From contig JAWCCZ010000004.1 in the NCBI GenBank assembly GCA_038861545.1, positions 160,001-224,000 on the forward strand: 64,000 bases of DNA, read 5' to 3'. A program made the translations under genes and the position numbers. Positions 7,216 to 59,257 of this stretch are shown piece by piece (within the stretch, counting starts at the first letter, position 1; the number at the start of each line of letters is the position of its first letter). This DNA is from Thermofilaceae archaeon. Lineage in GTDB: Archaea > Thermoproteota > Thermoprotei > Thermofilales > Thermofilaceae. The notes beneath the pieces are model-generated. The model saw only the letters and a program-made list of their open reading frames with translations. It had not been told where the DNA came from and searched no databases.

Positions 7216-7944
7216 ATGCGATGGACTCAATTATCCTCTTATTGTTATCTAAGTCCCGTGGGTTTAGCTGAAGACATCGATGAAGTTATTACACGTCTTA
7301 GCTCAAGGCTAGACCCCCCACTGAGTAAAAGGTTAGAAATTCTTGGGGCTAAGCTTAAGGAGCTTGCTCTTCGCCATATGGTCAGCTCCAACCACACAGT
7401 TATGGAGCTCGTAATAGCTAAACACCTTTTAGAAAGAGGCTATGAAGTAGAAGTAGAATACGAGCTTGCCCCCAACTTAGTATGCGATATATTTGCAACC
7501 CGTAATGGCAGGACAATAATAACGGAGGTTGAAACAGGCTTTGTACCTCCTGAGAATTCTACGGACCCCATGGCTTACAGAATGGCTAGAGAGCTCAGTA
7601 AGGTAGCAAGATACAGTAAGCACTCAGATGAGTTCGCGATGGCTATACCTCCCTTTCACATCCTCCAGCTTCCTTACGTGCTTTTCCTTCCACCTGAGGA
7701 GCGTGACCGGTGGGGAATAAAGTACTTTAAAAACCTAATAGATGCTTATTACTCAAAACCCCCCGTAGACTTCGATGAACTAATGACAGCTAAGTTACAC
7801 TACGTTTATGTGGTCCTTGTGGATAGCCTACAGATGATTGAACTTACTGCTGGAGAATATTATAACTTCTTCGTCGAGAGACCGGCATCTCTCCTATGGC
7901 GTACCGGTTGGCCTTTGAGTATCCCACCTTTAGAGGAAGATTGA
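7216..7944 (+). CDS. Conserved hypothetical protein, PD-(D/E)XK-like fold (start may be GTG at 7258)
   Basis: H...E...GYEVEVE...CD...EVET pattern of restriction-endonuclease-like folds. Confidence 0.5.
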   Translation: MRWTQLSSYCYLSPVGLAEDIDEVITRLSSRLDPPLSKRLEILGAKLKELALRHMVSSNHTVMELVIAKHLLERGYEVEVEYELAPNLVCDIFATRNGRTIITEVETGFVPPENSTDPMAYRMARELSKVARYSKHSDEFAMAIPPFHILQLPYVLFLPPEERDRWGIKYFKNLIDAYYSKPPVDFDELMTAKLHYVYVVLVDSLQMIELTAGEYYNFFVERPASLLWRTGWPLSIPPLEED

Positions 7945-7997
7945 GAAACCCAATCATGCGTCAAATATATTTACTTCGTAATTGGAAAAATAAAAAC

Positions 7998-8546
7998 ATG
8001 GAACACGTGGTAGTTTTAATTCCGGGAATGTTGGGTGCAGGCTGCACCTCAGTGGCGCAGGAGCTTGCTAAGCGCACCGGCCTTCGAATAATTAATAGCG
8101 AGTACATTATTAGAGGAATTGTAAGCGAAAAACGCGTCTCATTCACGGAGCTTGCCAACATGGCTAGGGATGGCGAGATAGACCTTGAAGATTTAGTTAG
8201 GAGTATCGCTGTCGATCATGTGAGAGAGGGGGGTGTCATCGTTGAAGGCCGTACAGCTCTGATGGTTCTTAACCAGCCAGTCACGCTGAAAGTTTTTCTG
8301 TACGCGGACAAGAGAGCAAGAATTGAGAGAATTGCTAAAAGGAGAAACATTAGCGCAGAAGATGCTCGAGAAGAAATCGAGCATAGCGATGCTGATAGGA
8401 ACAGGCTTACAGAAAGATTTTACAAGAAGCCGTACACTGATCCAACTCTCTACGACATAATGCTTGACACTACGAATCTCGCTTTCAGTGATGCTGCAAC
8501 AATAATAGAAAGTATATTAAAGCAGCGTATCCCCTTTAAAAGGTAA
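7998..8546 (+). CDS. Cytidylate kinase-like protein
   Basis: VIVEGR, LKVFLYA..RIERI, D..R...FY and YDIMLDTT motifs; P-loop degenerate (GMLGAGCT); ATG 7998 preferred over 7896. Confidence 0.75.
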   Translation: MEHVVVLIPGMLGAGCTSVAQELAKRTGLRIINSEYIIRGIVSEKRVSFTELANMARDGEIDLEDLVRSIAVDHVREGGVIVEGRTALMVLNQPVTLKVFLYADKRARIERIAKRRNISAEDAREEIEHSDADRNRLTERFYKKPYTDPTLYDIMLDTTNLAFSDAATIIESILKQRIPFKR

Positions 8547-44777: not shown

Positions 44778-45140
44778 GTGATCATAGCGCTTAAAATTAA
44801 CGATTTGAAACTCCGTGTTTACTTAACACCATATTTCTCCCCTAAGACTTTCTCCAAGGTGGTGAACCAATTGCCCCTAAACCTACATGCACACGTTTAC
44901 GGGGATACATTAATAGCAGGTACGGGAATAGAGACCGCAGTTGAATCTCATAGGATTTTACTTTACGAAAGAGAACTCGCTTACTGGCCACCGGCAGCTG
45001 CGCTAGTTATCGCTTTAAGAGGTTCTACTAGCTTCGGTAGCCCTGTAAACCCTCTGGGATACATCATCAATGCAGCCGAAGAATTACGATATTTAAAAGA
45101 TGGGGAGTCGCTTAGGATCATTCTAGATTTTGACAGTTAA
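44778..45140 (+). CDS. Cyclophilin-like (DUF369) protein
   Basis: PKT...LPL, ELAYWPP, SPVNPLG. Confidence 0.75.
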   Translation: MIIALKINDLKLRVYLTPYFSPKTFSKVVNQLPLNLHAHVYGDTLIAGTGIETAVESHRILLYERELAYWPPAAALVIALRGSTSFGSPVNPLGYIINAAEELRYLKDGESLRIILDFDS

Positions 45141-45180
45141 TTTCAGCAATGCTTTTTGGAGTTTAAAGAGAGGGGTTCTT

Positions 45181-45753
45181 GTGAGGAGAGTTATATATTT
45201 TGTTACAACGAATGAGGGTAAACTACGCGAAGCCCGTATAGTACTTGGAAACTATGGATTTTATGTAGAAGCAGTAAATACTAGGAAGCTCGAGCTTCAG
45301 TCGGAGAGCTTAGAAGAAGTAGTGAGTTTCGCGGCAGCGCAGCTGATTGGTAAAGTAGTTGACCCGTTTATAGTTGAAGATTCAGGGTTGTTTATCCAAA
45401 GCCTTAATGGTTTTCCTGGTCCTTACTCCTCTTATGTGTATAAAACACTAGGAGTTAAGGGGGTGCTCAAGTTACTTGAGGACATAGAAGACAGGAAAGC
45501 CAAGTTTGTGAGCGTAACTGCTTTATGCTTCCAAGGAGAAATACGTACTTTTAGAGGCGAAGTTGAAGGAACTATATCTTTCGAGGCTAGGGGTTCTACG
45601 GGATTCGGTTTCGATCCGATATTTATACCGGCTGGCTACGATTTAACCTTCGCCGAAATGACCCTAAAGTTAAAATGTGAAATCTCGCACAGGGCGAAAT
45701 CGTTATCAGTGTTAGCTAATTATTTACTAGAAATAACCGGTTCTTCTAAGTAA
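45181..45753 (+). CDS. rdgB: Non-canonical purine NTP pyrophosphatase (Ham1)
   Basis: TTNEGKLRE, EDSGL, GFPGPYS, GFGFDPIF, SHR. Confidence 0.93.
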   Translation: MRRVIYFVTTNEGKLREARIVLGNYGFYVEAVNTRKLELQSESLEEVVSFAAAQLIGKVVDPFIVEDSGLFIQSLNGFPGPYSSYVYKTLGVKGVLKLLEDIEDRKAKFVSVTALCFQGEIRTFRGEVEGTISFEARGSTGFGFDPIFIPAGYDLTFAEMTLKLKCEISHRAKSLSVLANYLLEITGSSK

Positions 45754-45870
45754 CTTTAAAATTGGATCATTCAGTCTAAAATTACTGAATAATCTTAGGG
45801 GATATTAATTTCCAATTTTTAGAAGTATAAATATCGAGAAAAGTAATATAACCCTCAAGAAAACTGGATG

Positions 45871-45960
45871 CAGGGGCGAAACCGCCGGTGAGCGTGGGGC
45901 AGTGCCACCCGCACAGAGGGCGTAAAGCGCTCCACTGGCTTAAGCCGGCGGCGCTTAACC
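45871..45960. ncRNA. Unidentified GC-rich structured RNA candidate
   Basis: 62/90 G+C between AT-rich flanks; helices GCCGGTG/CACTGGC, GGGCG/CGCTC and TTAAGC/GCTTAA; TATA-like elements on both sides. Confidence 0.55.
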
Positions 45961-46015
45961 CTATTTATAAGTTTCGGGGAGTAGAATATTTTAAGTTCAT
46001 AGATCGGCACGCCTA

Positions 46016-46978
46016 TTGAAAGACATGGTCAGGAGTTCTATTTACCGAGCGCTTTCGATTTGTAAGGCTTTAGTTACAAGGAAGCCTTTAGCCCTCTGCG
46101 ACATCGGCGATTTGGATGGCTTAACTTGCGCTGTACTTTTCAAAATGAAATACAGGGAAGGCGTGCTGGTCTTAGCGTCACCCTCCGATGTGAAAAATAG
46201 TAGGATATTGCGTGCTGTGGAATGGACATTCGTGGCCGACTTGCCATGCCCTGGAAAAGCTGTGCTACGAGCTGATCATCATGCCACCAACACACCATGT
46301 GCTAGGCAAGAGTTTTACGATCCCAGAGCGCCGGCGGCGGCGGTTTTAGCCCTTAAGGCCCTCGGTTTGGAGGACTTTAAACAAGCGGAAAGACTAGTTA
46401 AGTTAGCTGTCGAAACTGACACGGCAAAAATTGAATCCAATGAAGCCCTTGCGTTAAACGATGCTGTAAAGGGTGCAGGCTATCGAGGTAAGCTCAGGCT
46501 GGCTGAAATGCTTTCAACTATGGAACTGGAAAAAGTGTTATCTAATGGAGAAGTTAAAAAATGGATAGAAAGGTATAGTAAGGTAAGGCTTGCAACCGAG
46601 AAACTGGCTTCAGAGTTACCAGATGTAGAACATTTCGTCGCAGTTTTCGAAAAAAATATGCAAATCTCTTACAGGTATCTCTCAATACTTATAGAAAGAA
46701 AAGGTGCAAAGTTTACTGCGATTATAGTGCCTAGAAGCTTCTCTATGATCAGAGTATACCTTGGGTCTTCAGATCAAGCTTACGATGTATCGATGTTGGC
46801 GGGAAAGCTGGGAGGGGGAGGGCACCCATTTGCAGCCGGTGCTTCTATTAGAGGATACCCAGTTTCTAAAATTATTAGAAAAGTGCTGAAGGAGATAGCT
46901 GCATTCACGGGGCAAAAGGAGCTTAACGTATATATGATCGGGGGGCAGGGATTTAGACTAACTCTATTTACTCCTTAA
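46016..46978 (+). CDS. DHH/DHHA1 phosphoesterase
   Basis: DLDG, ADL, DHH, GGGGHPFAAG. Confidence 0.85.
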   Translation: MKDMVRSSIYRALSICKALVTRKPLALCDIGDLDGLTCAVLFKMKYREGVLVLASPSDVKNSRILRAVEWTFVADLPCPGKAVLRADHHATNTPCARQEFYDPRAPAAAVLALKALGLEDFKQAERLVKLAVETDTAKIESNEALALNDAVKGAGYRGKLRLAEMLSTMELEKVLSNGEVKKWIERYSKVRLATEKLASELPDVEHFVAVFEKNMQISYRYLSILIERKGAKFTAIIVPRSFSMIRVYLGSSDQAYDVSMLAGKLGGGGHPFAAGASIRGYPVSKIIRKVLKEIAAFTGQKELNVYMIGGQGFRLTLFTP

Positions 46979-59154: not shown

Positions 59155-59257
59155 GCCCCGGTAGCTCAGCCTGGTTAGAGCGCCGGCCTCGTAAGCATGG
59201 GGCACAGCCGAGGACCAAGTCAGCCGGAGGACCCGGGTTCAAACCCCGGCCGGGGCT
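59155..59257 (+). tRNA. tRNA-Thr(CGU) with a 28-nt intron at 37/38 (59194-59221)
   Basis: GCCCCGG/CCGGGGC acceptor stem with U73, GCTC/GAGC D stem, CCGGC/GCCGG anticodon stem, CGT at 59190-92, CCGGG-TTCAAAC-CCCGG T arm; CCA not encoded. Confidence 0.92.

Follow-up and report, generated by a model that had tools for sequence, protein, structure and literature searches.

A conserved structured RNA of about 90 nt, which matches no described family, heads the DHH phosphoesterase transcript in two genera of uncultured Thermofilaceae. We found it in the window, a 64,000-nt stretch of DNA from a metagenome-assembled Thermofilaceae archaeon, and all other carrier genomes are likewise metagenome-assembled and uncultured. 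[quoted passage not shown] The element lies between two genes of the same orientation and directly follows a predicted promoter:

45130-45753, plus strand: upstream gene for an RdgB/Ham1 XTP/dITP diphosphatase (Pfam Ham1p_like and NCBIfam equivalog matches)
45836-45851, plus strand: predicted promoter of the RNA, a purine-rich BRE-like stretch and the TATA box TAATATAA (45844-51)
45872-45874, plus strand: predicted transcription start at a pyrimidine-purine step ~21-23 nt past the TATA box, including GG 45873-74
45873-45961, plus strand: the RNA element, a GC-rich island
46025-46978, plus strand: downstream gene for a stand-alone DHH-DHHA1 phosphoesterase, NrnA/TmPDE-like (Pfam DHHA1 match)

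The GC content reaches 68.9% at 45871-45960, compared with 26.5% in the preceding 117 nt (45754-45870) and 43.8% in the whole window. An earlier note on this DNA had drawn attention to this GC-rich island behind AT-rich DNA, and its description is accurate as far as the composition, the quoted strings and the choice of the plus strand are concerned, while the stem and hairpin it preferred fail in the comparison with homologues described below. The strings GCCGGTG (45884-90), CACTGGC (45933-39), TTAAGC (45940-45), GCTTAA (45953-58), and ACA (45913-15) are all present, as is the upstream GAGAAAAG-TAATATA (45836-45850).

The DHH gene probably starts at ATG 46025, where the N-termini of the orthologues align; the listed open reading frame begins at TTG 46016. 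The best solved relatives of its product are the TM1595 phosphodiesterase, NrnA, Rv2837c, and PggH. Several public records name DHH-DHHA1 orthologues (P0011, P0029, P0053, and others) “Fis family transcriptional regulator”, a name that looks wrong because these proteins carry DHH motifs and have NrnA/TM1595-type phosphodiesterases as their nearest solved relatives.

The element is conserved in sequence, structure, and position. By BLAST followed by a covariance model (R1), it is present in seven of 120 genomes of the class, one copy each; the window's genus accounts for two of them (of two genomes) and a second Thermofilaceae genus, g9, for five (of five). When metagenomes were scanned with the core 20-mer, ten model matches resulted, which contributed four further distinct sequence variants, and the alignment holds 11 distinct sequences. 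Covariance searches of the order (41 genomes) and the class (120 genomes) returned no element outside the two genera. No copy appeared in eight Thermofilum-type genomes (g6), five of which have an assembly of 1-4 contigs and a completeness of at least 95%. In every carrier genome the Ham1/RdgB gene (~200 codons), the element, and the DHH-DHHA1 gene (~315-320 codons) follow each other on the same strand. The DHH orthologues of the other examined Thermofilaceae genera are preceded by a plain TATA box and a short spacer, with no such RNA. Thus, the element arose in one lineage and is not general to the gene. In seven of the eight Thermofilum-type genomes and in one other genus, the DHH gene follows what appears to be one conserved upstream gene.

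Within the element, an inner helix (h′ or P1) encloses a near-invariant core and a second helix (P2):

45882-45889, plus strand: 5′ strand of inner helix h′ (P1), CCGCCGGU, forming 8 bp with 45944-51
45894-45914, plus strand: near-invariant 21-nt core, consisting of the P2 5′ strand GUGGGGC, one A/U position, and GUGC-CACCC-GCAC
within 45894-45914, plus strand: candidate hairpin P3, GUGC-CACCC-GCAC, invariant
45915-45928, plus strand: joining region of 14-16 nt, in which GAGG and a 3′-terminal GC are conserved
45929-45935, plus strand: P2 3′ strand GCUCCAC, forming 7 bp with 45894-45900
45944-45951, plus strand: 3′ strand of inner helix h′ (P1), GCCGGCGG, pairing with 45882-89

The core is identical in the seven genomes except for the A/U position, and the string that follows GUGGGGC and this position is GUGCCACCCGCAC. 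In one metagenome variant the first G of the core is replaced by A, which is compensated on the partner strand of P2. GAGG and GCGC-YY-CAC are also conserved across the 11 sequences, and the stems vary. The 21-mer also occurs once each in two bacterial contigs (L009 and L010), one of Geminicoccaceae and one of Ilumatobacteraceae, within GC-rich and apparently coding sequence, and we take these two occurrences as chance.

Across the helix set, 96.3% of the cells are paired, compared with 32-49% when the partners are slid against each other; eight pairs change on both sides, and the covariation score is reached by none of 500 shuffles. In h′, three of the eight pairs are changed on both sides and every cell is still paired. 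Likewise, all cells of P2 are paired, with one compensatory exchange of G:C for A:U and three of G:C for G-U. P3 is a candidate hairpin of invariant sequence. An alternative CCC:GGG pairing predicted by energy loses one pair without compensation in three sequences, and the joining region at 45915-45928 could alternatively pair with the C-rich loop. For its composition, the sequence taken by itself has an unexceptional folding energy (z = -1.46, plus strand; -2.35, minus strand), and the case for structure is therefore made by covariation rather than by energy.

The same alignment separates the helices proposed in the earlier note. Its 7-bp stem GCCGGUG/CACUGGC is absent from the homologues and already broken in the other genome of the same genus, and the UUAAGC/GCUUAA hairpin is equally missing from them. 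In contrast, the CCGCCGG/CCGGCGG helix, which the note had listed as an alternative, is supported by compensatory changes; the mutually exclusive switch that it was thought to form falls away, since the other helix is not conserved.

The plus strand is the RNA strand, because ~14 G-U cells of the supported helices would become A-C mismatches on the minus strand and because it is on the plus strand that the conserved TATA box stands 5′ of the element. A 43-codon frame (45888-46019) is lost in relatives, and we reject a coding reading on account of one- and two-base insertions and deletions together with the compensatory changes in the stems. Nor is a spliced mini-ORF seen, as a start codon is missing from the predicted 5′ exon.

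No known RNA family accounts for the element. Searches of this locus and five homologous loci against Rfam 15 gave nothing at gathering score and matches at chance level up to E 10. The best local score was 19.6 bits (BSnc120) against a threshold of 114; other matches were to a miRNA and to ar14, and none recurs across loci. The earlier proposal of a promoter-flanked structured RNA outside the described families is supported.

It is extremely improbable that a known RNA hides here in disguise, whether a tRNA in permuted or split form, a guide RNA of the H/ACA or C/D type, or part of the SRP or RNase P RNA, and this reading is already largely refuted. It draws on the tRNA-like length of the predicted 77-nt excised RNA, on the BHB-joined permuted tRNAs that exist in Thermofilum pendens (PMC3218864), and on the weak resemblances listed in the earlier note, among them tRNA-like arms on the minus strand. 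ARAGORN reports no tRNA, the Rfam tRNA model RF00005 has no match at the locus up to E 10, and the G-U pairs favour the plus strand. On doubled circles at a lowered threshold, ARAGORN gives inconsistent calls on both strands in five of 12 sequences. Moreover, the 7-nt loop formed across the circle junction, which reads CGCUUAA here, never has U at its second position and lacks U33 and UUC, and is thus neither a T-loop nor an anticodon loop. The resemblance to an H/ACA RNA does not survive comparison: the ACA at 45913-15 lies inside the core rather than 3′ of the lower stem, reads ACU or ACG in relatives, and the lower stem is followed by CGC. By eye, no K-turn is seen, and no G-A tandem stands beside a 3-nt bulge; C/D boxes, which had been reported missing before, are likewise not seen by eye. 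The likeness to the SRP Alu segment is equally superseded. The SRP and RNase P models are silent at the locus, and full-length copies of both RNAs are encoded on contig C9 of the genome. Antisense pairing of the core with the 16S-23S rRNA operon (-33.0 kcal/mol) is no better than for shuffled sequences (mean -35.3 kcal/mol; 52 of 60 shuffles equal or better). A BLAST-short search of the whole genome returned only 11-15-nt chance matches, none of them within the rRNA operon.

At the base of the element, the pairing has the form of a BHB:

45873-45874, plus strand: 5′ strand GG of outer helix h
45875-45878, plus strand: 5′ strand GGCG of central helix H, pairing with 45952-55
45879-45881, plus strand: bulge 1, AAA, with a predicted 5′ cut at 45880/45881
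45881-45957, plus strand: predicted excised RNA of 77 nt (77-81 nt in homologues), delimited from the BHB geometry and probably circularised
45952-45955, plus strand: 3′ strand CGCU of central helix H, pairing with 45875-78
45956-45958, plus strand: bulge 2, UAA, with a predicted 3′ cut at 45957/45958
45959-45961, plus strand: 3′ strand of outer helix h (CC, then C)

Read from the outside in, the base consists of GG:CC, a 3-nt bulge on the 3′ strand, the 4-bp helix GGCG:CGCU, a 3-nt bulge on the 5′ strand, and the 8-bp helix CCGCCGGU:GCCGGCGG. None of the 11 distinct sequences departs from this 3-4-3 spacing, whereas other joining regions carry insertions and deletions. Helix H always has four positions, with 97.7% of its cells paired and two of its four pairs changed on both sides (GGCG:CGCU, GGCG:CGCC, CGCG:CGCG, GGUG:CACC, and GGCG:CGUC). 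Its outermost pair is G-U in this genome and a G-G mismatch in G019. Bulge 1 measures 3 nt in 11 of 11 sequences, while its letters vary (AAA, AGA, GAA, GUA, GGC). Similarly, bulge 2 always places 3 nt between H and an invariant C, which is always followed by a second C.

The outer helix h is weak in part of the variants. Its innermost pair is G:C in all 11 sequences and the next in ten, while further pairs are inconsistent (77% paired over four columns). It comprises 4-6 bp in G009, G012, and G015, 3 bp in G019, 2 bp in the window's genus (G000, G001) and in L050, and 1 bp in L043. The BHB is fully canonical in G009, G012, and G015.

The fold with enforced BHB is the minimum-energy fold in two variants, and in four more it lies 0.4-2.9 kcal/mol above the minimum (37°C). 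Energy minimisation favours a 3-bp H with a 4-nt bulge in this genome, and for G012-type sequences and L050 the BHB fold lies 5-10 kcal/mol above a register-shifted pairing. A genome-wide scan found 1372 BHB-shaped pairings, as against 1324-1369 in shuffled DNA, and two GC-rich ones, as against 1-3; the element is the most GC-rich pairing of the scan. Shuffled DNA thus yields as many BHB shapes, so that the geometry in one genome proves nothing and we reject any significance derived from it. The argument is the conserved geometry.

The BHB begins at the predicted start of transcription. In all eight sequence types, as read by eye, a TATA-like octamer lies 20-22 nt 5′ of the G-run, and the sequence between the two varies. 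We place the start at 45872-45874 on the basis of the usual archaeal TATA-to-start spacing and of this fixed spacing across sequence types. Past the element, the DHH start codon follows after 14 nt in G019, 15 nt in G015, and 16 nt in G009. These spacers leave no room for a promoter, and consequently the DHH mRNA begins with the RNA in these three genomes. G012-type sequences have 49-50 nt at this place, this genome has 66 nt, and L043 has ~190 nt; no run of at least four T is seen directly past the element.

We consider it distinctly unlikely that the element is a stand-alone gene for a linear small RNA, with readthrough into the DHH gene and a BHB-like shape that is coincidental and left uncut. 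Its own promoter at a fixed distance fits such a gene, and so does L043, where the outer helix is lost and ~190 nt separate the RNA from the DHH gene. In this genome, moreover, the spacer that separates the RNA from the DHH gene contains TATA-like boxes (45965-71 and near 45987-95), from which the DHH gene could be expressed on its own. However, the RNA is not followed by an oligo-T terminator, merely 14-16 nt precede the start codon in three genomes, and the canonical BHBs of G009, G012, and G015 would be expected to be cut by the splicing endonuclease EndA.

The spacer itself (45962-46024, plus strand) contains the TATA-like TTTATAA at 45965-71 and ATATTTTAA near 45987-95 and is nearly identical in the sister genome; it may hold a second promoter for the DHH gene in the window's genus only. 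Fragments of the core recur right before the DHH start as GUGCCACCC in G015 (L003), and G012-type spacers (L005, L050) contain GCCACCUGCGC or CCACCUCACCCGC. These fragments may be due to chance or may serve as an alternative pairing partner of the G-rich strands of the element.

The position at the head of the mRNA also suits an unprocessed cis-regulatory leader, in which the core would be an aptamer or a protein-binding site and the bulged stem the plain closing helix P1. The earlier note had proposed a leader that regulates the DHH gene; the location is right, and regulation is a rival reading that we regard as possible yet somewhat unlikely. The element has the look of a riboswitch aptamer, with a covarying closing stem around near-invariant internal nucleotides at the mRNA 5′ end of a nucleotide-metabolising enzyme. 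Furthermore, transcription is predicted to start exactly at the stem, the element directly precedes the start codon in three genomes, and the solved DHH relatives act on pApA, pGpG, nanoRNA, and c-di-AMP-related substrates. The core might bind a small molecule, such as one of the nucleotides or dinucleotides that the NrnA-like enzyme handles, or a protein, for example in autoregulation. In contrast to a riboswitch, the element has no conserved expression platform, and its distance to the start codon varies widely (14, 15, 16, 49, 50, 66, and ~190 nt). No run of at least four T follows it, and Shine-Dalgarno-like sequences are not sequestered by the conserved helices. The element is also confined to two genera and absent from the orthologous genes in the other examined Thermofilaceae genera. 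Finally, a leader of this kind leaves the strict 3-4-3 spacing of the bulges unexplained.

BHB-dependent excision would account for this spacing, and we regard it as the most likely mechanism among the readings, with about an even chance of being correct. Archaeal EndA recognises the BHB independently of its context, so that cleavage is to be expected wherever a transcribed RNA forms a stable canonical BHB. The same genome encodes two EndA-family proteins (PF01974, alpha/beta type) and one RtcB (PF01139). Enzymes of the (alpha-beta)2 type have been reported to cut non-canonical motifs (PMC5829648).

Introns are probably common in the tRNA genes of this organism. Of its 45 tRNA matches, 37 span at least 83 nt, compared with ~75 nt expected, so that the majority probably contain an intron, and canonical BHBs are present at the anticodon loop. 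Applied to these tRNA genes, the canonical cut rule yielded 5′ splice sites at 36-38 in seven of them. One intron-containing tRNA gene lies in the window itself (59155-59257, plus strand; 103 nt; Rfam 57.4 bits) and is missed by ARAGORN.

In the model that we propose, transcription from the element's own TATA promoter would run on into the NrnA-like DHH gene, with the RNA as the extreme 5′ end. The crenarchaeal splicing endonuclease, a heteromer, would sever each bulge behind its second nucleotide and thereby free nt 45881-45957, and RtcB would close this 77-nt piece into a circle. RtcB may also ligate the ~9-nt 5′ exon to the body of the mRNA. The excised RNA is likely to be the functional product, because it retains the near-invariant core, in which the 7-bp P2 would enclose GUGC-CACCC-GCAC and a GAGG-containing strand. 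Alternatively, the core may be a site that controls splicing. Our comparison shows that the element and its helices h′, H, and P2 are conserved, that the promoter position is fixed, that RNA and DHH gene are co-transcribed in the second genus, and that the enzymes are present; cleavage, circularisation, and exon ligation, like any function of the core, are steps that we infer. Against the model speaks the 5′ exon, which at ~9 nt and with 6-8 bp to hold it would be difficult to retain until ligation in a hot environment.

In the three short-spacer genomes, a Shine-Dalgarno-like GGGUG or GGGG is free in spliced and unspliced RNA alike, so that no regulatory logic arises from splicing, and the sequence gives no sign that splicing alters access to the start codon. 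We rate it as very unlikely that the element is a regulated archaeal intron of a new class, whose core binds a small molecule or protein and gates the BHB so that splicing controls the NrnA-like gene, or that the excised 77-nt circle acts as an RNA in trans.

With regard to the earlier interpretation, a promoter-driven RNA in the DHH leader is borne out, the likenesses to known RNAs and the switch are not, and the BHB geometry had been overlooked.

BHB-dependent excision from a leader has a precedent in Haloferax volcanii, where EndA cuts a 46-nt BHB intron from the 192-nt 5′ UTR of HVO_1309 in vitro and the intron is found in circular form (PMC7714728). This leader is conserved among relatives (PMC7714728) and is the closest precedent to our element, as both place a BHB within the 5′ leader of a protein-coding transcript. 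In contrast to HVO_1309, the excised RNA predicted here is 77-81 nt long, begins ~9 nt from the predicted start, belongs to a crenarchaeal lineage, and has both a near-invariant core of 21 nt and an internal helix that covaries. The two share no sequence similarity, and their downstream genes are unrelated as far as tested, with an NrnA/TmPDE-like phosphodiesterase here. Further, cleavage was shown in Haloferax and is predicted here. Only two mRNA-associated archaeal BHB introns are named in PMC7714728, the HVO_1309 leader and cbf5. The latter is an intron of crenarchaeal cbf5 pre-mRNA (cited in PMC7714728 and PMC2738675) and resembles the element as a non-tRNA, non-rRNA mRNA substrate of the crenarchaeal splicing endonuclease. 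The cbf5 intron splits a coding sequence, and its removal is required to restore the frame, whereas the element lies upstream of the open reading frame and its removal is thus not needed for the protein sequence.

Release and circularisation of an RNA inside a BHB are also known from pre-16S/23S rRNA, tRNA introns, and the permuted tRNAs of T. pendens (PMC3218864), and the latter likewise have a single promoter close to the 5′ strand of the motif. Here, in contrast, the enclosed RNA is neither tRNA nor rRNA and has no match in Rfam.

The element is a new RNA family, compact and described by a covariance model of 99 positions, with a reach limited to two uncultured genera; if it is cut, it joins the small set of non-tRNA, non-rRNA BHB substrates. 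It would then be a further mRNA-associated case, unlike cbf5 and HVO_1309 in its promoter-proximal start and its conserved, covarying internal fold. If cleavage holds true, the splicing endonuclease would offer a route to stable circular RNAs or matured mRNA leaders in hyperthermophilic Crenarchaeota.

The genes for the two RNAs used above for comparison show an arrangement of their own. RNase P RNA and SRP RNA are encoded at 7540-7866 (minus strand) and 7953-8265 (plus strand) of contig C9 in this genome (G000), and the SRP match scores 84.6 bits here and 93.5 bits in G012, under the Rfam gathering score of 96.5. In all four Thermofilaceae genomes checked (G000, G009, G012, and G006), the two genes lie ~100-200 nt apart; they are divergent in the first three and adjacent in G006.
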